A DNA stretch of 56,683 bases, filler included, from Jimgerdemannia flammicorona (taxonomy: Eukaryota), in assembly GCA_003990765.1 (NCBI GenBank). It is 3 parts of 3 records of this genome, joined end to end, with 100 filler letters (N's around TTAATTAATTAA, not from the genome) between each part and the next. Parts side by side here need not be neighbours in the genome. Positions count along the whole stretch, not along the records: positions 18,931 to 37,759 come from RBNJ01002099.1; 2 more parts are not named here. One strand, 5' to 3'. Positions 1-37,618 of the stretch are shown here, one piece after another. The notes beneath the pieces were generated by a model. The model was not told the origin of the DNA. It saw only the letters and a program-made list of their open reading frames with translations, and searched no databases. The position numbers and the translations under genes were made by a program. How positions within the stretch are numbered: position 1 is the stretch's first letter; each line of letters opens with the position of its first letter.

Positions 1-67
1 AAAAAAAAAAAAAAAAAAAAAAAAAAAAGACATAAAGAAAGGAGATGAAGAGGATACAGAAGTCTTC

Positions 68-1545
68 ATGCACTCAGTATATAAGAATAAGAGTAAGACA
101 CCTAAGCTCATAGATGAGCAGTGGTATAATAAGATCATTGATGATTATACTCCTCAAGAAATATACCTCCATGGTACTAGGATGTATTGCTCTGAACATC
201 TAAATGACTGCTGGTCCTGCATCAGTAAAGTCAGAAAAATCTATCAACAAAGATATGAGTAAGAAGCTGCTGAAGCAAAGAAGAAAGCTGAAGAAGATGA
301 CCAACCCCCAGAGCTTTAAGCTAATAGTGATGATGAGGAGGAACAAGAACTAGACATTACCCTCAAGATTAAGAAGTTTCACCCTAAAGTCAAGATCTCA
401 GAATATAAGATTGAAGGAGCTATAGGAATAGACCTTGCTAGCATCTAAGATGCTATCCTTGAATTACAAACTATTACTCTACTTGATACTGGAATTAGAG
501 TTAAGTTGCCAGAAAACTATACTGGAATTATCAAGACCAGGAGCAGTCTGGTTAAGAGCAAAATCTCAGTTGAAGGAAGAGTTATTAACTCTGATTAAAC
601 TGGTGAGATCTTCCTTATAGTCAGGAATCACAACTCCACCACTCTATTCAAAGTCAAAAAGTATGATAGAATTAGCCTAATACTAATCTATGAAGTCAAA
701 GAGTCTAAGATCACTGAAGCCATTGAACTTATCAAGACTAAGAGAGAAGAATAAGATTTTGGATCTACTAGAAAAGAAGTCTATACTGCTATCAAGATTA
801 CTGAACTCAAGCATAAGAAAGATAAGGACCAGAATAAGTATACATATACCATTAGAGAAAACTTTCCCCTAGAAGAACAACTTCTCAAGATCCTGTACCA
901 AAATAAAGGAGTACTCACTATAGACTTCAGAGATATTTATAATCAAGAACCCAAGTACTATCACAAAGTTGACACCAGTGATACCAAGCCCATCTACCAG
1001 AAAGCCAGACCTATACTATCTACCTACAGAGAATGGCTGTGAGCAGAACTCAAGAAAATAGAAGAAGTCAGTATTATCAAGTAAACTATTAGCCCCTGGG
1101 CTTTACCCATTATTCTTACTTCAAAGAAAGAAAGTAAGTCTGGAGAGTTTGTCCCAAGACTCTGTATTGATTATAGAAAGCTCAATACAATTATCAAGAA
1201 GGATAGACAGCTCTTGCTAAATATTCAAGAAATTCTTATCACTCTTAAAAGTGAAGCCAAATACTACACTACCTTGGATCTGTTCTCAGGCTTCTATCAG
1301 ATTGGTCTTACTCAATATATCAGTGAGAAATCAGTCTTTATCACACTATGCTACCTATGTCTACCTGTGAATGTTATTTGAAATGTACAATACTCTAGCA
1401 AGTTTTTAGTAAATGATAAATAGAGTTTTTAGCAATGAGATTGGAAAATAGCTCTTTGTCTATATAGATTCTATGAAGATTGAGATTATTGCAGCCTACC
1501 CAAGATACAGAATAACTACAGAAGTCCATATCTTCTTTAGAAAAC
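68..1545 (+). mobile_element. Degenerate Ty3/gypsy LTR-retrotransposon pol fragment (dUTPase followed by reverse transcriptase)
   Basis: One frame from 68 with in-frame stops. RT motifs SPWALPII...PRLCIDYRKLN...YYTTLDLFSGFYQI; after a frameshift, *MLFEMYNTLASF**MINRVF (eroded RMPFGMCNAPASFQRMM) and LFVYID at about 1452-1469. An apparent internal deletion then leads to KIEIIAAYP...TEVHIF. Confidence 0.9.
347..772 (+). pseudogene. dUTPase domain in the retrotransposon pol, upstream of RT
   Basis: Manual translation LKIKKFHP...GAIGIDL...DTGIRVKLP...IKTRSSL...EGRVINSD*TGEI...YDRISLIL...KREE*DFGSTR shows eroded versions of all five trimeric dUTPase motifs. Confidence 0.88.
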
Positions 1546-24075: not shown

Positions 24076-24538
24076 TAGAACGAACGAATGAGCGAACAGA
24101 CGATATGCGACATGTGACGACGAGCGATCACGTGACCCAGCGAGAACGTCATCATCGATCGAATGCGACTTATAATATTATGAACGACGCGAATAAACGA
24201 TATCCAGCTTATCCCCAGCAACCGGTGCCACAGCAACCAGCACCGCAGCAGCTGATCATTGTCTAGCAATTGAGGTCCTGATCACAAAGTGTTTTTTGAT
24301 CACAAACCACCTGACAAAGTCATGATCATAAACCTCACTTATACTTAGTCAGAAATCACAGACCAAACTTGTATAAATACTCCTCAGTTTCTATCTAAAA
24401 TAAAGACAGTTTTAGTTCAGTCTTTGATATAAGAATCAAATCTCTCCTTTACACACACACATTCCCCTGAGTCTTAGTAATAATATCTAAGTAACTCTAG
24501 TATTTCTGACTAAACTCCAGAAGCCTAGCTAACTTCTG

Positions 24539-24540
<2 letters not shown>

Positions 24541-24619
<79 letters not shown>

Positions 24620-24700
24620 GTCTCTTGGACTCCTTCCTTTATTAATACAGCCATTTATTCTATATATAATACACTAAGCCCACCTCTATCTGATCTCTCT
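24541..24700 (-). mobile_element. Short LINE 3' end with poly(A) tail and 15-bp TSD
   Basis: TSD TAGCTAACTTCTGTC (24526-24540) and TAGCTAACTTCTATC (24701-24715). Sequence next to the poly(T) matches the LINE 3' end at 43624 onward. Confidence 0.85.
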
Positions 24701-25488
24701 TAGCTAACTTCTATCAGAACTAAGACTGGTATATAAATTACAAAGACTTAAGTAAACTCATTAAATCTGAATTCCAAGGTAAATTCAGTCTGTATATAGC
24801 AAAGAACAAGTCTCTTACAATCAAGGTTGATAAGAAGAGTACTGCTGCTATAACTACTTTTAAGTGAGTATTTTCTTAAACTAAAGACTTTTTAGTATAT
24901 ATTATATATTAAGTCTCTAAGTAATATCTTATTTCTCTAATTATTCAAAAGATAAGAGAGGGATAGAAATAAGAGTTATTATAATAATATTTGAATTAAA
25001 TCAAATCAATTCAATTTGAATACTATATATATATCTACTTTAAATTGATTTAAATCATTTATTTGAGAACACTAGTTTTTTGTAAAGGTTAGATAGTTAG
25101 GTACCTCTTTTTATAGCTTTTTACCAAGCTCTACTAGCCCCTTGGTCTTACTTTGTAATACTGTTGATATAGTATTGTAATGTAGGACCAGAGTGTCTAT
25201 AAGGTTCAAATCTGTACCAAAATCTGACTGCTTAAAGCTGCTTCTTACAATAGATCATTGGGCTATAAATTTTATATACTCTCTTTAACTTGAACTTCTA
25301 TACTAACTAATAGCTTGAGATTATCTCTTGCTGCTGGCAGAGGGCTACAAATTTTGCACACTCTCTTTACCAACTCTGCTGATCTCTATTCTACTTAGAC
25401 TGCTCAAGAGTAGCTCTTTGTAGCTAGTGAGGGACTATAAGCTCTAGTATACTCTCTTTGTCTGCTATCTTATACTTTAAGCTGAACT

Positions 25489-25563
<75 letters not shown>

Positions 25564-27537
25564 TGTAGAACTTGCTCAATTTTAATAGTCTATACTCCAT
25601 TAAGACTTTAGATATATATAAGCTCAGATTGCCTCAGCATTCAGCATATATCTCTTAAGAGAAATGAGATTTACTTTACTAGAGAATATCTACTCAACTA
25701 GAGTATTGATGATAGAAATGATCAAGTAGTTCTGAGCCATATTATATAGACTAGAGAAGTCTGTTTGATGCATCTATGGCTACATACTCCAGAGAGTAGA
25801 ATAGTGATTAGATTGATAGTTAAAATTAGTATAATCCTGCTAATTATCAATAAGAAGACAACTTATCTTCTATCAGTTGAGTATCTTTATACTCTTTAGT
25901 AAGATTATATAGTCACTAATAAAGTAAATAATGAGTTTATCTATTGATGGCAGTTTCTCCACTAATGGCTCTCTCTTTCTCTTTTTGCTAAAGCAAATAT
26001 ATAATAAAAGAGATTCTTCAGCATATTTATCTAAACTTTGGTCAGAACCTTATAGCAGTATATAGTTTTTCTAGTATATTTTAATTATGACTTACTTAAT
26101 GTAGTACTGCTTCCAGCCCTGATCTTTATGGTATTATAGTTTTAAGTATAGATTCAATACTATTTTGAGAAAGAAAGTAAGTTTCTCTTTTTTGGAATAG
26201 ATAACTACTATACCAATATATCTATACTAATAAAGTATATAATGATATCTATTTTAGAGTAGTATTTTCTAAGCTTACTTAGAGTAATCTCTACAGTATC
26301 TCTCTGATCTGGGCTAAACCAGAAATCATCACTACTCTTCAGTTTATCCTCAAGCTTATTCTCTAGTTAATTAATTAAAATATTATATATATTCTAATAT
26401 TATAGAGCTTATTTTCAGAGTAGTTTGTTTGACTATATTCTTCATATAATCATTAAAATACTAATAGTTAAGAATAGTGAATTGTTATATTACTATATAA
26501 AGACAGATAAAATGAATATAGAGCCAAAGTAATTATTACTTACTTCCAAAACTCTGACAATATTCCTTAATATATTCTACTTGTTTTTATTTATAGTCTT
26601 ACTCCACATTTCCTTATAAGTAGTAATTGTAAAATCTATCAGTTTTTTTTTTTTAAAAAAAAAAAATTTTAGTTTAAAATTAATTAACATTTCTTAATTA
26701 TCTGAAACAATTTGCTTTAGCTAATTAAAAAAAGAGTATATACTTTAGCAAACTTCAGTATATGCTAGATCATTACAAATGTCAAGTTCTAATATATAGA
26801 TATCTAATATTAGCTCTTTTAGAACTAAACTAATTACTCTATACTATATAGTAAATTTGTCTCATTATTGTAGAGATGATTAGATTAATACAATCAGTTT
26901 GTATAGCTTGGAAACAATACTCAGAGGTTCTTTACTTTCAGATATTTTGTCTATATATATAAGATAATTCTAAACAACAAGGTTCAGTATGTGGGCCTGA
27001 TAATATATATAGTAGTTTTCTATACCAAAGACTATATTTTCCTATTAAAATTAGTTGCTAAAATTTGAAAAAAAAAAAAAATACTATATTGTTTGTAGTA
27101 TTATCTATTATAATAGTCAAAATCTATACTTGAAATTTTCAGTTAGCAAATTTATACAAAAATAAATAACTATTAATATCTATTTTGTTTTAAGACTTTT
27201 CTCAAAATACTAACTAGATGGTAGTTTTCTCTTTTTATCTTGGTTGTAATCCTAAGCTCCTAGATATATATAACTAATAAAAACATCTGTGATGTTTTTT
27301 TCAAAATAAGAACTAGCAAGTTTGATAAAGTTAAGGATAAGAGATTTAAGTTACTAATTGAGATCAATCTAATAACTAGTAATACTCAGAAATGAAATTA
27401 TATTGAGAGATGTCTATGTATCAATTATAAATAAAATTCTGCCTACCAAATTCTATTTATTGAATGTAAGATTAAATTGGTGAGCTTTATATATATATAT
27501 ATTCTTATAATTGAAAAGTAAAAATTAATCCTATATA

Positions 27538-27850
27538 TAGTACTTGAAATGAATTAAATTAAATCAAATTTGTCTCCAATTTGATTTAATTCAATTTAAA
27601 TTGAGACTCAATTCAATTCAAAGTCTAATTTGAATCTAATTTTTCAAAATTCAATAACTTAACCAAAATATATCCAAATTTAATAAATTTTAGCTTATTC
27701 AATATGCCTTATAATAGAGAAACTAGTATAATAAAGAATATTAAATTTAGACATATTTTCATTAAGTTATTATATTTTGAATTTGGAATAAATATTTCAA
27801 ATCAAATTAGGCCTCAATTTGATTTAATTCAAATAATTTAATTTGTTTGC
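27538..27850. mobile_element. Degenerate hAT-family MITE remnant
   Basis: Begins TAGTACTTGAAATGAA, with AATTCAA/TTGAATT-rich subterminal repeats like 53872-54180 and 54947-55303. The right TIR is not intact. Confidence 0.55.
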
Positions 27851-28099
27851 CAATCCAGATAAGCTATAAGTTACTTTTTAATAAACTTTATCTTATATAT
27901 CAAGTTAAAAATATAAATATAACATCATCTGATCCAGCAAATAATTATATAAAAAACATCAACATTAAATAATTAATGCAAGGGCAATTTTTAATGCAGG
28001 TGGACAAGTCTATTGTAATGTCATTACGGCATCCAGCATCCAGCACATCAAATGTGCTATCGTCCTGACAGGAAAAAAAAAAAAAAAAACCTCAAGATT

Positions 28100-30302
28100 T
28101 CATAAATCCATTCCAGCAACATCTGTCATTTGTAACACCAAACACCTCTCCCATCCCTGGCGATCCTTCCTCACCTCCACCAGCTTCATGCATGGCTCGA
28201 ACATTCGTCCGACACGGGATACCATTCCTTTACCGCATTCAAGCACCAGCCATCCTCCATCCTTCCTCAAAAGTTTCCCATGCCCGCGCCTCAAAATTTG
28301 ACTCAACACGCGGTAGCATTCGTACCCATCCTCCCCTGAGAAAATCGCCTCCCGAGGCTCGAAATCGACCAATGCGCCGTAATGATCCTTGCGCGCGACC
28401 GTGGTCTCGCTCAGGTAAGGGGGGTTGCAGACAATCATGTCAAACGGTAAATGGGGTATCAGCGCTGAATTTTCGTGGCCTTTGTCAAGAAGAGCAAGAT
28501 CAAGGTTTAAGAAGGTTGTATGAAGCGAGAGATCGAAACGATTGGCGTTCTCAACGGCTAAATCGAGAGCACCTTGACTGATGTCTATTCCAACACCATG
28601 CATATTGAGATCGCGAATGTTGTAAAGGACGGATAGAAGGATATTGCCACAGCCTGTACCAATGTCGAGAATGCGTATGGGCCGAGAGAAAAGTGACGGC
28701 ATTTCCTGTGTGGCAAAGCTCTGTTTCAGGATGTCTAGTGTTGATTGAACAATTATCTCGGTGCTTGGTCGTGGAATCAGACAAGCCCGATTGATCTTGA
28801 ATCGAAGGCTATAAAATTCCTAGACCATCAAACTATAGGTTAGCATTGATGTAATGGTAATATCCAGGGAAGTGATCAAAATGCATCTTCAAATTTCCAC
28901 TCACCTTTTCCCCAACAATGTACGCAACTGGGATATTTTCCGCTCCATCATATTCCACTCGATCTATTTCATTGCCCTCATATATCCCGCCTTTCTCCTC
29001 ATCTCCATCAAATTTAATATAACCCACACCCGCCATTTTCAATTCATCTTCTTCCTCCTTCTTTTTTCTCTCCCAGAATCTCTGCTCCCTTGCCCGAATG
29101 ATCTCAAACTTCGCTGGTTCTTCTTTCTCGACTTTCACCCAGTCCTTCTTCATGGGATGCCCAAAATTGACCTCCAATACCGCCAAATATAGCCCCTTAT
29201 CTCGATTTGATTTCAGTGGCTTCGTGTACGTTGACCCTCCGACGATTGGGTGTTTAGTAGAAAAGTAGAAGAACCGGCGGAGGTGCAGGCCTGTTGCAGG
29301 AGCCGCAGGCCACACGTCGATGGTGGAGAGGTAGGAAGAGGAGTTGCTGCGGCTTGTGGACACAAGGGCGAACGAGCGTAGGGGGTTGGTCATAGCCGCG
29401 GTTGATGGGGTGTTGGCGGCTTTGTCGTCGACATCGTCTCCGTCTTCGTTGTTTTCGTCGTCTTCGTTGTTTTTGTCGTCTTCGTTGTTTTCGCCGTCTT
29501 CGCCGTCTTCGCCGTTTGCAGCTTGGATAGTTGCGGTAGTCGTGCCGTCGTGAGAAATGTATCGAGTAGGCAATATCTCAGAAATATTTGAGGTGACGCG
29601 GCCGTGGCATATCAATCGATAACGAATGATAATTTCACCGTTCTGAAAGGCTTCGAAAAGTCTTTCTTTGGCTTGCAAGGTTTTCGCGACAATAATCTGG
29701 ACGGTGGAGGAATAAGGAAAATAAAAGTTAAACGGATTGACAGAAATGCGGTTATCCGATCGCATACAATAACCTACCAGCCCGTACGCCGCCTTTTCCA
29801 ACTGGTACACACACCATACCCTCTGCCTCCCACCAATCCCCCTGTTTTTGTGTTCACTCTCGCCATTTTTCTTTGCCTTCCTCACTATCAGTCCCACGGC
29901 CTTTTCAAACTTGTTAAAATTCATGCCGGCAACCTTCCATGCCACGGCCACGTCGTCGTCCTCCCACACGACGTCGACGTCGAGTCTTTCGAGGGTCTGC
30001 CGCTCGTCTTCATCCTTATCGTATCGCAACTCGACGAGATCGCCCTCCTTAAGTATGCGGGTCTCCTCCGCAACCTCACCGTTTACGCGTACCTCGCCGC
30101 GCCGGAAGGAGCGCTGGCATCTTAGTTTGGATCCTAATCGAGCGACAGTAAATAAGTTTTTGGCGCAGTGTAAGTCCCGTGTGGCAAATTTTCAACACTC
30201 ACCAACTACGGAACGATAGTGTGCTGTCAGGTACTTGAGGGCACGGAGGCCATTGCAGTCCTGGTGGACGGTTACCTGTAGGTGTGAGATCCTGTCCGCC
30301 AT
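28100..30302 (-). CDS. Fusion: S4-like domain + RluA/RluD-family pseudouridine-synthase-like domain (catalytic motif altered) + HemK/PrmC-like SAM methyltransferase; about 655 aa, 4 exons
   Basis: Exons 30302-30203, 30133-29778, 29696-28905 and 28819-28100 splice in frame (GT-AG). S4-like GEVRVNGEVAEETRILKEGDLV. RluA-like LDVDVVWEDDDVAVAWKVAGM, YQLEKAAYGL, HPIVGG and LYLAVLEVNFGHP. HemK PVAYIVGEKEFY...LIPRPSTE, ILDIGTGCGNI, NPPY and FEPREAIFSGEDGYECYR. Confidence 0.88.
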
Positions 30303-30406
30303 TTTGTTGTTAATGTGGCTGAGAAGAAGAACAAGCCAAGCCACACGACCTTTTTTGTCTTGTATCGGATCGGGTATTACAGCAATCCTATCCCTTTCCT
30401 TCAGTC

Positions 30407-32502
30407 ATGATTTTGGGCTTCTGGGGTCTCCACGTTCTTCCTGAAAAAGCTTACACCCAGGTCGTTGATGCTGCCTTTCGCCTTACAATGGTTTGTAGCA
30501 AGCTTGCGCCCCTGGTTGTGTCGTGTTTTTGCGCACCTTACAAACATATTCTCGACGCGTCTTTTTTTTTTTTTTTTTTTTCCTGAATAGGCCGCTCTCG
30601 GCGACGACGCCAAAGGCGGAGAGCGCTCATGCCTGAAGGTTACCGTGAACCAAAGCGATTATATCTTGTGTTCTTTGACATTTGGCAAGGTAAGGCGATA
30701 CTGTCTGTTAAGACGAAATAAAAATAAAAATAAAAATAAAAAAAAAGGTGTCGGAATGAGAGGAAGGAGGGAAGAGGGTAAAATACCCACTGTGCTAATG
30801 AGCAAGACCTTTCGATTCTTATAATCTCCCAGGTCGATCAGCAAATACTGGACGTTGCCTTCGTTGAAGGCGAGGAAATCACGTTCTCCGTTTCTGGCAA
30901 AAAGTATGATTTACCCAAATGAGAATACAATCCTTGTTTTGAACTTTTTCTTTTTTTACTCATAGAATACCTGCTTCTTATTGTCATGGCTTCAAACTGT
31001 CACAGCTCCGTCCACCTGACGGGCAATTACATTCCTGATGAGGGCGAGGAATTGAACCCTTACGATCACAGTTTTTTGGAACTTGATAGCGACGAGGAGC
31101 TGGATAGCGATGAGGAAGAGGAATCCGAGGAGGTGGATGATAGCGATAGCGATATTGATATCAAAACTAAAGGGGCTCAACGTTTGGGTACGTGGAAGAT
31201 TTGTGCCATATGTGATTTTGTGAGCTTCGGCATCCTCAACAAATGAGCACATTACTCATCTTGTCCTTATAGTGTACTTCGATCCGGATTCCGACGACGA
31301 TGAATCAGAAAACGACGAGGATGACATCCTAGTCAACGAGCACAAAAAACGCCCGTCTGCCACCAATGGTTTGACGTCTTCCATCGCACAACAACAGCCC
31401 GCCAAAAAGCAGAAGAAGGCCGCGGAATTCAATGACGTGGGTGAGCCACAGGAGAAAAAGGAGCAGCAACAGTCAAAGAAGGAAGAAAAAAAGGATAAGC
31501 CTTCGAAGAAGGAGGAGAAGAAGGAACCCCTGACAAAGAAAGAAAATAAAAAGGCGGAGACACCTGTGAAGAAGGAAGATAAAAAGGAAGAGCCTAAATC
31601 GGAAGAAAAGGTATATTTTTACAAGGCTGCTTCCAATTTGGTTTGGGTAGAGGCATATTAGTGAGAAGTCGTAAGTAGAAATGGCAAATTGGATGAAACA
31701 GGTGGTGACCGATCAATATGTTGTAACCATTGAACTATCTTAATCTGTATTTTCTTATGGTACGTTTCACCGTCAAATATGCAAGAAGCCCAAGAAGCAG
31801 ACCCTCCCTAATGGCCTCGTGATAGAGGATATCAAAATTGGGACAGGGCCTAAAGCCAAGGCTGGCAAGAAGGTCTGTGACTCAACGTTCATTATTTCTG
31901 GGCTTCGTTAATACATATTTGCATATCTCCTTGTATCCAACAAATTGTAACGCATTGAATCCCGCACATCACAATAGATTGGAATGCGTTACATTGGTCG
32001 CCTTACCAATGGCAAGGTCTTCGACAAGAATGTGAACGGAAAGCCATTCCATTTCAATTTGGGCAAAGGCGAGGTCATTAAGGGTACGTCTATGATTTCT
32101 TTTTTTTAAAAAAAAATTGTCGGTTTCAATTTTCTTTGTGTTGATATTCCTTCATCGACGCAATATTGTTCCATTCACGGCACATGTCCAGGTTGGGATA
32201 TTGGTATTGCAGGCATGCAATTGGGTGGCGAGCGCAAGCTTACAATTCCGGCTACCCTGGCGTATGGGTCTCAGGGTTCGCCACCAGATATCCCAAAGAA
32301 TGCAACTCTGGAGTTCGAGGTTGGTAAAAAGATTATTGTTGTGAAAGGATTCAATGATTTTTTTTTTTTTTTTTTTTGGGGGGGGGGGGGGGGGGTGGAT
32401 TATCATTATTATTATTATTAGTGAAAGATACGCATCATCCTTAAGGAAATCTTTATTCTTATTGTTTGTTGCCCACAGGTCAAGCTTATTCATATGAAAT
32501 AG
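30407..32502 (+). CDS. Nucleolar nucleoplasmin-domain FKBP peptidyl-prolyl isomerase (Fpr3/Fpr4/FKBP39-like), multi-exon
   Basis: N-terminus MILGFWGL...FRLTM/AAL, LCSL, VHLTGNY, then an acidic and Lys-rich linker. FKBP domain [51 protein letters not shown]...[13 protein letters not shown]. Confidence 0.95.
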
Positions 32503-34685: not shown

Positions 34686-37288
34686 CTATTTCTTGCCCCT
34701 TTTCACTAGTGGGAAATAAGACACGAGCAACAGTACCCTATAAGTAACCGCTGACTCCCAAACGTGATTAATCCAATAAATAACATATAGTATCCCTTAC
34801 CTTCCTTCGCCAGTTCGAACAACCCGCTCCTTTTCCTCTTCGCTCCATGTTTCCCCGCAATTCTTAATTGCTTTGGCACCCTCCGCTTCCGTTTGGCTCC
34901 GGGACTCTCCTCCTTCTCGTCACTTTGTTCGTCACTCTCGCTTTCGTACTCGCTTCCGCTGGTCACGTCATTCTGCTCCTCTTCCTCCTCCTCCTCCTCC
35001 TCCTCCTCCCGTTCCTGCTCCTGCTTGGGTTTCACCGCAACTCGCACCCCTAATCCATCTAATGGTCTGAATTTTGTCATAGCTGCGAGCTTGCTTAATG
35101 AAGTAAAAGGACGGGCCCGCATTTGTCCCGAGGGAGGGAAGAGGGAACTGGTGATTGAGTTGAACGGAATGATAGACGATGTAGGGGGTGGAAGGGTGGC
35201 CACGGAATGCTCTTTCGGCGCAGTGTCGTCCTCATCGTCGTCGTCGTCGTCGTCGCGGCTGTCTTGTTCAGAGTCACTCTCTGTGTCGTCCGTTGATTCA
35301 TTGTCGGAGCCGAGGGCAGCTTCGTGCCGGCTGAACGTGGCGGTATCAGAAGGCGATGCATCGCCTTCCACACTTGCGTTGACCCCTTCCTCCAACTTCG
35401 CCTGAATCGCACTTTTCGCAATCACGATGGGCGGCATCGCCTCCTCATTCTCACTCTCAACGATCTTGTAATGGCGCTGCTCTTCCCCATCCCCATCTTC
35501 TCCTTCTCCCTCCTTCTCCTTCTCTTTCTCCTCTTCCTCTTCCTCTTCTTCCTCCTCTTCCTCCTCTTCCTCCTCCTTTTCCTCCTCCTCCTCCTCTTCC
35601 TCTTCCTCTTCCTCTTCCTCTTCCTCCTCCTCTTCCTCCTCTCCTTCTTCCTCCTCCTCCTCCTTCTTCACCTCCTCCTTCTCCACCACCTCCATCTCCT
35701 CCTCCACCTCCGCTTCCTCATCCTCATCGTTACTCGATGCCGATGGCCTGAAGTTCACCATCCGCGGCGGTATCATAAGCGATGTCAGCACTGAGGTTTC
35801 GGTCACAGATAGAGGCTCCGATGCGTCATCCGCCTCCCTCGATTTCACTCCCTGAGACACATGCATAATTACTTCGTCAACTTTTGAGGGGTCGCGATGC
35901 GGAAGCGACGATGTGGGTGATGAGGTCGTTGTTGCTGCTGTTGTTAGCATGTCAGGTTGCACTGCGGCAGCAGCCACTGCCGAAAATGACCTTGCAACCT
36001 TGTGCGGTACCGATGGGGATGGTATGGATTTGGCCTTTTTCTTGTTACTCGTCTCCATTACTTGTGGCGGTTCCGATTTATTGTCCGTTACATTTGATAT
36101 CGCCTCGTTGGAAACGGGATCGGAAGAGGAGGAGGCTTTCGTACCCTAATGCAGTTGTGAACACGCATGCCAATGATTACAATCAATATTTATCGTATTG
36201 TCCCACCTAACTTGAACCCTTTTTCTTCATCCCGAGAGAAGCATCCGAACCATAAACAGAAATATTACCTTATCCTTATTTTTTCCATTTTTCTCCTCTT
36301 TTTTTCTTTCCCAATCTTTCGTCGCCGTCTTATCCTTCACATCCTTCGCGTCCGTCTTGAATTCAGCCATCACTTCCGCTTCTGTATCTTCTTCCGTCTC
36401 GCCCTTCCGGTTTACGGCCGCCTCAGCACTCTCTCGATCCGCTATCCTCTTTTTCATCATCTTTTTATATCTTTTCATTCTCGGTTTCGTCGCTGAGGAC
36501 AGCATGGACGTCGTCGAGGTAGGTGTCGACGCTACGCTGGTATCAGGCGTGGTGGCGTTGTTCGTGCCTGCGAGCGCGAGCAGATTAACGGTGTTGATCG
36601 GATTCGGTTTGGGCTTCTTGGCGGGCGGCATCTAGGGTTGAAAACGAGAGGAAAGTACCGGAGAGTGCTTGAATACTGGGCACGCCTGGGCACGCGAGTT
36701 AACACACTAGAAGCAGGAACAACGCACTAATACCAGGCATTTGGCGGTTTGAAATTCTCAAAACATTTACCGAATCATAGCCCATTTTTCTCCGTCTCCG
36801 CTTCACCGCGCTCTGGGTCTCGTCGCATAATGTCGTTGCCTTCTCCTTGCCCACGTTCCGGTTCTCGTCCTCGTCCTTGCCCCATTTTCTTGCGTTCTGG
36901 CTCTCGTCCATGCCCCATTTTCTCGCGTTCTGGCTCTCGTCTTTAGCCCACTTTCTCGCGTTCTGGCTCTCGTCCATGCCCAATTTTCTCGCGTTCTGGC
37001 TCTCGTCCTTAGCCCATTTTCTCCCGTTCTGGCTCTCGTCCTTGTCCCATTTCCACTTCCTCGCGTTCTGGCTCTCGTCGCAGGATGTCGTTGGCGTGAG
37101 GGTGGGGGTGAGGGTTCTCGCATGAGAGTCAATTGAGTGCTCTTCGCCCTTGGGCAGAAGTACGTTCACAACGCTGTTGTCCTCAAAGACCTCACCGATA
37201 ATGTAGTCATCATCCAGGTCGCAGTGGAACGCGTTGCGAAGACGGGGAACAGTCAGCGGTCTGCGAGTAAGATTTGTAAGGTTAGTGT

Positions 37289-37331
<43 letters not shown>

Positions 37332-37618
37332 CGAGAGGGAGGGAAGGTTTTCAAGCAAAAGATTCGTAATGCGTACGTTTCATTCGGATACAACTTTGCC
37401 CACTGCTGTGCAATCTGCCTCCTGAGGTCTGCCAGCGAGATGGTAATGTCGGTGAGCATTAGGAAGCGACGACGGAGTCGGGCAGTGGGAATGGAAGGGA
37501 CTAGGAAGCCACCATTGGCTATAGAGGAGACAGAGCTGACGGGGGGGGATAGGAATATGTTGGATTCGAGGTCTGAGTGGGTGGAAACGCAGATCTGCAA
37601 CTTGCAGCGGGTAGCCAT
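34686..37618 (-). CDS. Net1/Tof2/Dnt1-like nucleolar protein (Cdc14-binding-type N-terminal domain, long acidic low-complexity region), multi-exon
   Basis: N-terminal KLQICV...RRFLMLT...LADLRRQIAQQWAKLYPNE/PLTVPRLRNAFHCDLDDDYIIGEVFEDNSVVNVLL matches the Net1/Dnt1 N-terminal pattern from recall. Poly-Glu tracts and basic NLS-like clusters. Last mini-exon VKRGKK*. Confidence 0.65.
36870..37079 (-). repeat. Coding minisatellite, 33-bp unit x6 (DESQNARKWxx)
   Basis: Six copies of TTCTGGCTCTCGTC on the + strand, in frame within the Net1/Dnt1-like gene. Confidence 0.9.

Follow-up and report, generated by a model that had tools for sequence, protein, structure and literature searches.

The release-factor methylase PrmC/HemK, of which solved structures are available (E. 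coli 2B3T and 1T43, T. maritima 1NV8 and 1SG9), has eukaryotic relatives of the same type in Mtq1 of yeast and HEMK1 of man, for which passages of PMC8904536 describe a targeting signal at the N-terminus, followed by PrmC_N and MTS with a small residue in front of the NPPY motif, and no synthase module. RluD, the pseudouridine synthase for positions 1911, 1915 and 1917 of 23S rRNA (1V9F, 2IST and 7BL5), consists of an S4 domain and an RluA-family fold; according to parts of PMC11472175 it acts on helix 69, to which it binds and which it modifies at a late stage of large-subunit assembly, and the PDB title of 7BL5 places it on a pre-50S particle. Synthase-like proteins are also bound to the ribosome precursor in mitoribosomal large-subunit assembly intermediates of trypanosomatids (7AOI chain XP, 6YXX chain EC and 7AM2 chain BZ) and offer, by analogy, a precedent for the synthase fold as a ribosome-bound part. 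We take these trypanosomatid proteins to be catalytically inactive. Two enzymes that modify the translation apparatus share one chain in PrmC/TrmB, for which NCBIfam has a bifunctional model (NF002421), and in bacterial clusters that combine PF00849 with PF10672.

The gene described here, whose assignment to Jimgerdemannia flammicorona agrees with a 100% protein match, unites the first two of these systems. It is encoded on the minus strand of the window, i.e. of the whole stretch of 56,683 nucleotides (filler included) that was analysed. The entire C-terminal half is like PrmC/HemK (profile E 1.6e-39), with motif I, NPPY and the ..AY..G..F....LIPRP.TE.. stretch all present and, in the model of an orthologue, a helical N-piece as well; in contrast to PrmC/HemK, a RluD-like module of ~360 residues stands in front, the N-piece is shorter and unrecognisable by sequence, and the equivalog score falls short of its cut-off. 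With RluD the fused family has the S4 plus RluA-family fold in common over the full length, whereas it reads YQLE for HRLD, contains an acidic disordered insert and has a methyltransferase attached. It differs from Mtq1/HEMK1 by the apparent lack of a presequence, judged by residue count, and by its persistence where organellar translation is absent. The trypanosomatid proteins belong to another eukaryotic lineage and have no fused methyltransferase, and in the bacterial PF00849 + PF10672 clusters the partner is RlmI-like, not HemK (atlas 0.77-0.80, leads only). Our literature searches found no study of a RluD-like/HemK fusion, in agreement with the first reading, to which no characterised protein of this architecture was known; we regard the fusion family as a variant, hitherto uncharacterised, of families that are known.

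The gene consists of four exons and three introns, all on the minus strand:

30203..30302, minus strand: exon 1, with the ATG at 30302; amino acids 1-33 and the first base of codon 34
30134..30202, minus strand: intron 1, 69 nt, GT..AG; joint 30132/30131 to 30202 seen in X1 and X2
29778..30133, minus strand: exon 2, amino acids 34-152; carries the S4-like domain, degenerate motif II and the first part of the synthase-like fold
29697..29777, minus strand: intron 2, 81 nt, GT..AG, in frame; joint 29696 to 29778 in X1 and X2
28905..29696, minus strand: exon 3, amino acids 153-416; carries the remainder of the synthase-like fold with the acidic insert, then the helical linker and the beginning of the HemK homology
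28820..28904, minus strand: intron 3, 85 nt, GT..AG; joint in X1, X2 and X3
28100..28819, minus strand: exon 4, amino acids 417-655 and the stop codon at 28102-28100; HemK/PrmC catalytic domain

The spliced exons amount to 1968 nt, equivalent to 655 amino acids and a stop codon, and contain no internal stop; the predicted in-frame joining of four exons into about 655 amino acids is thereby borne out. The same frame has a stop 5' of the ATG, at 30405-30407, and the stretch between them contains no further ATG in frame. Record 2 of data set X1 is a single contig of 1998 nt that lacks all three introns and covers 28099-28818, 28904-29696, 29778-30131 and 30202-30304. All three exon joints are present in X2, on separate contigs, the metatranscriptome X3 contains the joint 28818/28904, and the coverage of X4 is limited to 28099-28255. 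An RNA check across the 28904-28820 intron had been proposed, and the joint is spliced in X1, X2 and X3. The RNA origin of X1 and X2 is a guessed label ('RNA?'), and both were taken as cDNA because their contigs are intron-less. HemK of T. maritima (..PVAYIVGEK/EFYSLRF..) aligns through the exon 3/4 joint on ..PLHYILGEKEFMGLSF.., and the Endogone orthologue is uninterrupted over the exon 2/3 joint (..YQLEKAAYGLIIAAKN..). Non-synonymous and synonymous changes (7/4 in X1, 9/6 in X2 and 3/3 in X3) are strain differences, of too small a number and too varied an origin to gauge selection. Many of the changes in X1 and X2 are found at amino acids 115-130 and 198-227, and 9 nt are missing from X1 at 29481, inside the acidic insert. 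An Rfam scan of 27000-31500 gave no matches.

Both public gene models disagree with the RNA-supported model and with each other: P0002 (682 amino acids) retains intron 2 in frame, and P0001 (616 amino acids) leaves out the stretch that holds motif II. This discrepancy could be taken to mean that a decayed synthase gene and a neighbouring HemK gene have been misread as one, but with all four exons on one intron-less contig, 655 codons without a frame break and 113 fused proteins gathered from five fungal phyla such an artefact is exceedingly improbable. The architecture is expressed as one gene, one mRNA and one protein of 655 amino acids, a point on which we are practically certain.

The following features were located in the N-terminal half of the protein:

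30018..30290, minus strand: S4-like domain (~amino acids 5-72), spanning intron 1; from a profile alignment to RluD, with borders transferred from an orthologue by alignment
29064..30005, minus strand: pseudouridine-synthase-like core (~amino acids 77-363), spanning intron 2; RluD E 8.7e-18
29778..29807, minus strand: degenerate motif II, YQLEKAAYGL (amino acids 143-152), from the HMMER alignment to RluD
29421..29519, minus strand: acidic low-complexity insert rich in Asn, Glu, Asp and Gly, inside the synthase-like fold
29268..29297, minus strand: ATGLHLRRFF (amino acids 286-295), which corresponds to ..GRTHQIRVH.., with Arg292 in the place of the conserved base of the active site

The family profile matches E. 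coli RluD with an E value of 8.7e-18 over the S4 and the catalytic domain (HMMER), the alignment beginning at RluD residues 6-7 (1v9f, 7bl5_7). Exon 2 alone is recognised in NCBIfam by the rluA_subfam model (E 1.6e-6) and the RluD model (E 1.3e-4); the bit scores of rluA_subfam (TIGR00005; 27.7 for exon 2 and 16.9 for exon 3) are below the cut-off of 192.7, and those of the RluD equivalog NF008385 (21.4 and 13.9, respectively) below 351. When single Jimgerdemannia exons were scanned with Pfam, S4 was detected with E 0.027, below its cut-off, and PF00849 gave no match. PF00849 is present in 7 of 13 named fused orthologues and exceeds its cut-off of 26.8 bits in one of them. We do not count the Pfam miss against the synthase fold because the profiles and a structure model show this fold.

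The model in question is an AlphaFold2 prediction of the Lichtheimia orthologue, which is 42% identical to the Jimgerdemannia protein (pLDDT 87.1; pTM 0.70, a value that leaves the relative placement of the two halves unfixed). Residues 8..348 of the model align to residues 2..325 of full-length RluD (Z 20.2 and 18.9, with 284 and 290 aligned residues), and the synthase-like core resembles the catalytic domain of RluC (Z 21.0), RluD (Z 20.3) and human RPUSD4 (Z 17.9). The counterpart of the acidic insert (residues 202-220) has a pLDDT below 50. The trypanosomatid chains XP, EC and BZ match the model with Foldseek E values of 7.6e-12 to 1.4e-8 and the profile with E 0.0034, and in the atlas a TM of 0.65 to a bacterial S4 plus synthase cluster was found. 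Residues 338..602 superimpose on residues 8..276 of E. coli PrmC from the RF1 complex (Z 28.4, 246 of 276 aligned; VIA-align). Profiles and orthologue model thus agree on the predicted succession of S4 domain, RluD-like fold and HemK/PrmC domain. Part of the linker and PrmC_N-like stretch has a pLDDT of 58-70. The sequence had hinted that the RluD module stands in place of the N-domain of PrmC; this idea was dropped, the model aligning from PrmC residue 8 onwards. Since a PrmC_N-like piece is present in the model, the RluD module is, as modelled, added to a whole PrmC of which a short PrmC_N-like helical piece remains, and the N-domain would not have been replaced.

The catalytic signature of the synthase is degenerate. 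In the HMMER alignment to E. coli RluD the family reads y-k-l-E-k on H-R-L-D-K and ..avRrll.. on ..QIRVHM.., and Glu146 of the Jimgerdemannia protein (29798..29796) is aligned on the catalytic Asp of RluD. HRLDxxTSG has accordingly become YQLEKAAYG, with Asp changed to Glu and His and Arg lost, and GRTHQIR has become ATGLHLR, both as predicted from the sequence, the Arg of HQIR being kept as Arg292. Across the family, HRLD is found in none of 96 fused proteins, the figure for HR[LIM]D among stand-alone relatives being 85 of 98; His and Arg are absent in 96/96, and the HQIR Arg is retained in 90 of the 104 fused proteins that have a residue in its column. Chytrid and gut-fungal members keep the Asp alone and read ..LDKATSG... 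These findings bear on the possibility that the Jimgerdemannia synthase half is still active, with Glu146 in place of Asp, and that the protein is a true bifunctional enzyme. The three active-site residues named in passages of PMC3973310, a carboxylate, a base and an aromatic residue, have counterparts in Glu146, Arg292 and Tyr178, which leave room for residual synthase activity, and Glu is the commonest residue in the catalytic column (39/96). In sister lineages, however, this column contains Gln (23), Gly (7), Ser, Ala, Lys or Pro and is therefore not restricted to carboxylates; His and Arg have disappeared throughout and the aromatic column is variable (Tyr in 32/105, Met in 23, Ile in 18). 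In TruA, moreover, an Asp-to-Glu change was reportedly inactive. We consider an active synthase half very unlikely.

In the C-terminal half and the linker in front of it, four features were assigned:

28947..29114, minus strand: a long helix, together with short ones, that lies between the two halves (~amino acids 347-402), probably a reduced PrmC_N-like domain
28757..28780, minus strand: LIPRPSTE (amino acids 430-437), the PrmC/PrmB-type motif before the Rossmann fold
28646..28666, minus strand: DIGTGCG (amino acids 468-474), SAM-binding motif I
28415..28426, minus strand: NPPY (amino acids 548-551), motif IV, directly preceded by Cys547

The three motifs reported to be intact are indeed so. 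Exon 4 alone matches the PrmC model TIGR03534 with E 3.5e-42 (NCBIfam) and exceeds the cut-off of the hemK_fam model TIGR00536 (116.3 bits against 115.5), as does the Neocallimastix orthologue (127.7 bits), and the model for the L3 Gln-methylase reaches only 65.1 bits on exon 4. With 144.6 bits for exon 4 alone, where the match starts at profile position 54, and 157.6 (Neocallimastix) and 125.4 bits for whole orthologues, the PrmC equivalog TIGR03534 remains below its cut-off of 199.1. The family profile matches solved PrmC/HemK structures with E values of 1.2e-42 to 5.6e-38. A comparison with bacterial PrmC by hhalign (36% identical, probability 99.9) is limited to PrmC residues 69-287, the N-terminal helical stretch not being recognised by sequence; PrmC_N (PF17827) was matched by Pfam in none of 19 fused proteins (22 proteins scanned). 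In 28 orthologues the Asp, Gly, Thr, Gly and last Gly of DIGTGCG are invariant, as are Ala, Tyr, Gly, Pro, Arg and Ser of ..AY..G...F....LIPRP.TE..; NPPY is invariant in alignments of 28 and 42 orthologues, and the position before it is occupied by Cys in 90% or more of the orthologues in the alignment of 28. According to passages of PMC8904536, a small residue at position -1 of NPPY is typical of PrmC, HEMK1 and Mtq1 and a Phe of HEMK2 and Mtq2; Cys547 is thus a residue of the former and not of the latter type.

An NPPY domain could also have been switched to the amino group of a base (m6A or m2G) in an RNA bound by the synthase-like half, the Asp-keeping members of zoosporic fungi then being bifunctional. 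The next best structural matches of the C-terminal half are in fact RNA methyltransferases (TrmM, Z 21.6; RsmC, Z 19.0; TrmN, Z 18.5; METTL16, Z 18.1), and P0195, of the chytrid and gut-fungal group that retains ..LDKATSG.., scores 109.5 bits as a member of the RluA family, compared with 27.7 for exon 2 of Jimgerdemannia. The bacterial fusions of a synthase to an RNA methyltransferase, which are leads only, and the bifunctional PrmC/TrmB model point in the same direction. This assumption is nevertheless rather unlikely in view of the scores of the HemK half, which are 139-149 bits to solved PrmC/HemK but 39-55 to the best RNA methyltransferases, of the preserved PrmC-specific stretch with its invariant key residues, and of the universal loss of the HRLD His and Arg. 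To our knowledge, all members of the HemK family characterised so far methylate protein glutamine.

Fused proteins were found in Mucoromycota, Zoopagomycota, Chytridiomycota, Blastocladiomycota and Neocallimastigomycota, i.e. in every non-Dikarya phylum sampled, and no named match came from Dikarya or from animals; as far as named matches show, the fusion appears to be confined to fungi. The tree of the fused proteins tracks fungal taxonomy, with a split between zoosporic fungi and zygomycetes (96% SH-aLRT), and the HemK domains of the fused proteins form one clade (98% support). Judged by these trees, the fusion is old and of single origin. The Asp survives in zoosporic members, so that the synthase half has, as far as can be read from the alignments, decayed by degrees, from Asp in zoosporic fungi to Glu, Gln or Gly in zygomycetes. 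With respect to the taxonomic survey that had been proposed, the fusion is widespread and HRLD is absent from the fused proteins counted, but the loss of the Asp is not universal. Columns conserved to at least 90% in an alignment of 42 rows amount to 41 of 212 in the HemK domain, 10 of 219 in the synthase-like domain and 3 of 75 in S4. Despite its lost signature, the synthase half is conserved throughout the family and, by the orthologue model, retains its fold. Automatic names that touch the fusion are 'methylase of polypeptide subunit release factors/23S rRNA-/tRNA-specific pseudouridylate ...', 'Bifunctional methyltransferase' and 'HemK methyltransferase member 1'. DNA 6mA is known from early-diverging fungi and not from Dikarya, similar to the spread of the fusion; a link between the two was considered and discarded, as nothing in the sequence supports it.

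The distribution also bears on the site of action. Three species of Neocallimastix, Anaeromyces and Piromyces have orthologues that are 78-81% identical along 99% of their length; the N-terminal halves of the gut-fungal proteins are 79-83% and the C-terminal halves 80-81% identical, and the methyltransferase motifs are all intact. The hydrogenosomes of these fungi are described as devoid of a genome in passages of PMC10978972. The first reading of the sequence had noticed no obvious mitochondrial presequence, and by a crude residue count, not a trained predictor, 59 of 67 full-length fused proteins start at the S4 domain, with at most 10 residues before it, and 56 of 67 have at least two acidic residues among the first 25. 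For human HEMK1, by comparison, a targeting signal of 40 residues is predicted in passages of PMC8904536. Because of the retention in gut fungi and the N-termini that begin with S4, the protein presumably acts not, or not only, in mitochondrial translation; the same two observations argue against mitochondrial release factors as its only substrate, and it is probably not simply Mtq1/HEMK1, the mitochondrial release-factor methylase. We lean slightly towards an action outside mitochondria.

Set against this is the assumption that the fused protein takes the place of Mtq1/HEMK1 in non-Dikarya fungi, imported without a classical presequence and methylating the GGQ of Mrf1 and its relatives, with the RluD-like half docking on mitochondrial helix 69 or binding the factor. 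Bacterial-type enzymes in eukaryotes, as RluD and PrmC would be, usually work in organelles. The HemK half is nearest to PrmC and has a small residue before NPPY, the orthologue model still shows the PrmC_N-like helices, and HEMK1 acts on all four human mitochondrial GGQ proteins (passages of PMC8904536). Furthermore, no stand-alone fungal PrmC/Mtq1 was present among the best 120 of 201 matches of 131-419 amino acids in a word-index search, which were partial fused models, presumed bacterial PrmC (30-36% identity) and Phytophthora proteins; if aerobic species have no other PrmC-type enzyme, the fused enzyme must serve the mitochondrial factors there. The outcome of this search is weak evidence and does not amount to absence, given the word index, the length range and the cap at 120 rows, and an intact and evenly conserved fusion in three gut-fungal genera without an organellar genome, together with the missing N-terminal extension in most full-length members, makes a purely Mtq1-like role unlikely.

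We therefore return to a glutamine methyltransferase that is docked to RNA or to the ribosome as our proposal for the whole chain, one that is advanced tentatively on the basis of sequence and model, its chances being somewhat short of even. The methyltransferase half would be a working enzyme that by descent N5-methylates a protein glutamine, and this protein-glutamine chemistry is, on its own, probable. The synthase-like half would make little or no pseudouridine and would instead serve as an RNA-docking module, a role that by analogy we likewise regard as the probable one; by descent it may bind a helix-69-like stem-loop on the large ribosomal subunit or its precursor. Docking would put the methyltransferase beside a ribosome-associated glutamine, in a GGQ-type factor or in a ribosomal protein. 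A more far-reaching version, which is doubtful, is that non-Dikarya fungi possess a third eukaryotic system of glutamine methylation, located outside mitochondria, in which a spent RluD-derived module steers a PrmC-type enzyme to the large subunit in the cytoplasm or to the precursor of this subunit in the nucleolus; the substrate, for instance eRF1, a rescue factor or one of the ribosomal proteins, would be new to methyl-glutamine, and the system would have been lost in Dikarya. The other two systems in such a scheme are Mtq1/HEMK1 and Mtq2/HEMK2-Trm112.

The fusion unites a helix-69 pseudouridine synthase with a release-factor methylase, two enzymes that bacterial genetics ties to translation termination. 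Ejby (2007) is said to have drawn this bacterial link, which O'Connor and Gregory (2011) reportedly temper. The family has been hidden from routine annotation, since Pfam sees no more than a generic methyltransferase in the Jimgerdemannia protein and both public models are mis-spliced. It would provide a clear-cut example of how an enzyme becomes a targeting module, with a catalytic signature lost stepwise over five fungal phyla. The persistence of the fusion in gut fungi makes a role of a PrmC-type glutamine methyltransferase outside mitochondria testable, and the fusion is present in Mucorales, for which genetic tools exist.

The fused gene lies on the minus strand of the window, and its four exons, read by script from the window sequence, are joined to 1968 nt, i.e. 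655 codons and a stop, with no internal stop codon:

30302..30203, minus strand, exon 1
30133..29778, minus strand, exon 2
29696..28905, minus strand, exon 3
28819..28100, minus strand, exon 4

All three introns (69, 81 and 85 nt) are of the GT..AG type. The protein start is placed at 30302 because an in-frame stop codon is located upstream (30405-30407) with no intervening ATG. Public sequencing runs were aligned to 27800-30700. A single 1998-nt contig of run X1 covers 28099-28818, 28904-29696, 29778-30131 and 30202-30304; it spans both halves of the fused gene and lacks all three introns. All exon joints are also present in run X2, spread over separate contigs; the 28818/28904 joint recurs in X3, a root metatranscriptome, and coverage by run X4 is limited to 28099-28255. 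The library type of X1 and X2 is marked 'RNA?', which is a guess, and the intron-less contigs argue for cDNA. Homologues align across two of the joints, which independently confirms them: HemK of T. maritima runs unbroken over the exon 3/4 joint and the Endogone orthologue is continuous over the exon 2/3 joint. The four-exon model of 655 residues in the original prediction is thus borne out by the open frame, by the contig and by the homologues, and the splice over the 28904-28820 intron, for which transcripts had been proposed as a check, is found in X1, X2 and X3. That the fusion is an artefact is extremely improbable. The 655-residue model is better than both public protein models, which are mis-spliced in comparison to the transcript contigs: P0002 (682 aa) retains intron 2 (29697-29777) in frame, placing 27 extra residues within a strand of the synthase fold, and P0001 (616 aa) drops a stretch with motif II (29778-29890). 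Neither splice form was seen in the contigs aligned to the gene, which are insensitive to rare isoforms.

A neighbour gene on the plus strand (30407-32421) is arranged head to head with the fused gene, its ATG at 30407 lying 105 bp from that of the latter. Its first coding pieces (30407-30489 and 30590-30692) are followed by an acidic and Lys-rich middle and by an FKBP_C domain at 31978-32421 (E 1.6e-15 and 1.1e-8), and we take the product to resemble a nucleolar FKBP of the Fpr3/Fpr4 type. Its 30489/30590 splice is present in X1 record 3 and in X2 record 8; the latter runs on into exons 1-2 of the fused gene, which indicates either overlapping 5' ends or a fusion by unstranded assembly. A T-run (28062-28098) follows the stop codon of the fused gene, and the tract directly downstream (24500-28000) has 19-33% G+C (<27% in all bins but one) and no long frames, compared to 41-51% in the adjoining genes. 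A frame at 36699-37379 (minus strand) matches Cytokin_check_N, the N-terminus of a Cdc14 phosphatase binding protein (E 3.7e-9).

For structural comparison the Lichtheimia ornata orthologue P0005, 42% identical to the window protein, was folded with a 42-row alignment (mean pLDDT 87.1, pTM 0.70). The pLDDT falls below 50 only at residues 1-7, in an acidic insert (202-220, 224-226) and at 370-373. Foldseek placed HemK/PrmC at the top (E 2e-17, TM by target 0.70-0.74). RluD came second (E 6e-15 and 8e-15), its pre-50S-bound form among the matches, and third were synthase-like chains found in assembly intermediates of trypanosomatid mitoribosomes (E 8e-12). By VIA-align, residues 338..602 superimpose on 8..276 of E. 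coli PrmC as bound to RF1 (Z 28.4, rmsd 3.0, 246 aligned), 91..338 on the catalytic domain of RluC (Z 21.0) and 8..348 on 2..325 of full-length RluD (Z 20.2, 284 aligned), the latter with an rmsd of 12.1 because the S4 domain is oriented differently. On the sequence level the first 60-70 residues of PrmC find no match in the fused protein. The idea that the RluD module substitutes for the PrmC N-domain was nevertheless rejected, as at the place of that domain the model retains a reduced helical segment made up of helices 326-352, 358-369 and 378-382 (pLDDT 58-70 in part). The predicted architecture is therefore that of a whole RluD-like enzyme preceding a nearly whole PrmC-like enzyme.

The synthase-like half is too diverged to be recognised by Pfam in the window's exons. 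However, a profile built from the N-terminal parts of eight orthologues matches E. coli RluD over both the S4 and the catalytic domain (E 8.7e-18). The HMMER alignment places y-k-l-E-k-a-a-s-G-L of the fused family on H-R-L-D-K-D-T-T-G-L of RluD, and ..avRrll..ghPvvGn on ..QIRVHM..THPLVGD. Glu146 (29798..29796) consequently occupies the position of the catalytic Asp, in agreement with the earlier claim that HRLD is lost and this Asp replaced by Glu. In motif II of the window protein His is also changed to Tyr and Arg to Gln, and the active-site arginine of HQIR is retained as Arg292. The conserved active-site residues described for these synthases are an Asp, one basic and one aromatic residue (PMC3973310), and the window protein has Glu, Arg and Tyr178 at these positions. 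Judged from its sequence, the synthase half of the window protein is likely to be catalytically dead. An Asp-to-Glu mutant of TruA is reportedly inactive. That this half, with its arginine and tyrosine in place, is still active in Jimgerdemannia appears very unlikely to us.

The original claim hinged on orthologues having lost HRLD as well, and not one of the 96 fused proteins without a gap in the four motif columns has it, compared to HR[LIM]D in 85 of 98 stand-alone relatives. The Asp column of these 96 proteins holds Glu (39), Gln (23), Asp (21), Gly (7), Ser (2), Ala (2), Lys (1) and Pro (1). Asp is kept by chytrids and gut fungi (..LLDKATSG..). Of the Kickxellales, two have Asp and most have Glu; Glu is shared by Endogonales, Mortierellales, Entomophthorales, Syncephalis and Basidiobolus, whereas Mucorales and Geosiphon have Gln, and Calcarisporiella and Paraphysoderma Gly. 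Zoosporic fused proteins have far higher RluA-family scores (109.5 bits for Neocallimastix versus 27.7 for exon 2 of the window), and the graded column together with these scores indicates that the synthase half decays in steps. The original interpretation of a dead RluD-like scaffold joined to HemK/PrmC is supported in part and sharpened by the family survey: the fusion stands, and the catalytic Asp persists in some lineages.

Within the synthase-like fold the window protein carries an acidic insert rich in Asn, Glu, Asp and Gly (29421-29519). Its length differs from strain to strain, 9 nt at 29481 being missing from X1 and the repeat count being different in P0001; orthologues have inserts of differing length and composition at the same site, and its counterpart is predicted to be disordered in the orthologue model. 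After the aromatic residue, the RluA-family ..A(L/I)V.G.. is replaced by Cys-His-Gly (Cys182-His183-Gly184 of the 655-residue protein; residues 209-211 of P0002 in the orthologue alignment A1), almost invariant in zygomycete fused proteins and not in chytrids; this triplet may represent a new conserved site within the spent active-site region. The fused proteins P0040, P0048, P0049 and P0053 (603-743 aa; ENA, Logan and JGI records) are divergent and group as a separate clade in the zoosporic part of the tree (100% support); they have Gln or Gly in the catalytic column and Cys-x-Gly in place of Cys-His-Gly.

The methyltransferase half is well preserved. Exon 4 alone matches the PrmC model TIGR03534 with an E-value of 3.5e-42 and exceeds the HemK-family cut-off (116.3 vs 115.5 bits), whereas its score with the L3-glutamine methylase model is far lower (65.1 bits). 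LIPRPSTE, DIGTGCG and NPPY are all present in the translation, as first noticed, and Cys precedes NPPY. The residue before NPPY is Phe in the HEMK2/Mtq2 type and Cys in the fused protein, which matches the type described for PrmC, HEMK1 and Mtq1 (PMC8904536). The next-best structural matches of this half are the RNA enzymes TrmM, RsmC, TrmN and METTL16, as would suit an RNA methyltransferase or a bifunctional RNA-modifying enzyme; they reach only 39-55 bits versus 139-149 for solved PrmC/HemK structures, and we consider such a function unlikely.

Exon 4 matches a protein of J. flammicorona at 100%, and this fungus belongs to the Endogonales (Mucoromycota). Fifty-six longer relatives of exon 4 were retrieved: 38 with a fungal species name, all of them Mucoromycota sensu lato or Zoopagomycota, three from Phytophthora and 15 without organism name. 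In the one Phytophthora protein scanned (P0044), the methyltransferase lies close to the N-terminus, with a weak PrmC_N match and no RluD-like half. The N-domain profile found 57 matches at E <=1e-30 among 1.84 billion representatives, and names were obtained for 20 fused proteins among its matches. The fusion occurs in eleven chytrids (Borealophlyctis, Quaeritorhiza, Blyttiomyces, Chytriomyces, two Phlyctochytrium, Dinochytrium, Podochytrium, Chytridiales JEL 0842, Zopfochytrium and Physocladia), in Neocallimastix, in Paraphysoderma (Blastocladiomycota) and in Basidiobolus, Geosiphon and Mycoemilia. Dikarya are absent both from the 38 named fungal matches to exon 4 and from the 32 named among 37 matches to the Neocallimastix protein. 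Overall, 218 proteins with the N-domain were gathered, 113 of which also have the HemK domain. In a quick-search tree of 38 fused proteins (about one per genus) the groups follow taxonomy, and zoosporic fungi separate from zygomycetes at 96% support. A HemK-domain tree that also took 28 PrmC rows, mostly unnamed and only presumed bacterial, and three Phytophthora proteins unites 14 fused proteins in one clade (98%) with its sister group not resolved. We read this as a single old fusion that was inherited vertically and, judging by the named matches, is absent from Dikarya.

The fused protein might be the mitochondrial equivalent of Mtq1, given its PrmC-like half. However, by our own crude count, which is not a predictor, at most 10 residues precede the S4 domain in 59 of 67 full-length fused proteins and the first 25 residues contain at least two acidic ones in 56 of 67, whereas human HEMK1 has a predicted targeting signal of 40 residues (PMC8904536). 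Moreover, the fusion is intact in the gut fungi Neocallimastix (three species), Anaeromyces robustus and Piromyces finnis, whose proteins are 78-81% identical across 99% of their length (79-83% in the N-half, 80-81% in the C-half), with SLLDKAT(S/P)GFVIAAKT nearly invariant and all methyltransferase motifs intact. Gut-fungal mitochondria are described as reduced to hydrogenosomes without a genome (PMC10978972), where a protein that did nothing but methylate mitochondrial release factors would be expected to disappear. An Mtq1 equivalent is hence unlikely, and because of the short N-termini and the retention in gut fungi we rank a role outside mitochondrial translation above an Mtq1 with an appendage.

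The data establish a transcribed and conserved fusion in which the methyltransferase motifs are intact and the synthase signature is lost. By analogy to characterised HemK-family enzymes, which methylate protein glutamine (PMC5372719, PMC8904536), the C-half would transfer a methyl group to a glutamine of a protein. The N-half may bind structured RNA in the manner of RluD, which modifies helix 69 at a late stage of large-subunit assembly and has been seen on a pre-50S particle (PMC11472175). An RNA-binding N-half of this kind would bring the methyltransferase to a ribosome-associated substrate.

No paper describing an RluD-like/HemK fusion was found in our literature search. An automatic JGI name joins 'methylase of polypeptide subunit release factors' to '23S rRNA-/tRNA-specific pseudouridylate ...', others read 'Bifunctional methyltransferase' (Zancudomyces) or 'HemK methyltransferase member 1' (Nowakowskiella), and most records, both of this gene included, are named just 'S-adenosyl-L-methionine-dependent methyltransferase'. 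In the ESM Atlas, bacterial clusters (Myxococcota, Bdellovibrionota, Verrucomicrobiota) combine PF00849 and an RlmI-like PF10672 methyltransferase in one chain (feature scores of 0.77-0.80, leads only); this synthase-methyltransferase fusion is analogous, but its methyltransferase belongs to another family. In the fungal protein, two known enzyme families are thus joined in a fusion that is ancient, lineage-restricted and uncharacterised, and in which one catalytic centre has been lost stepwise.
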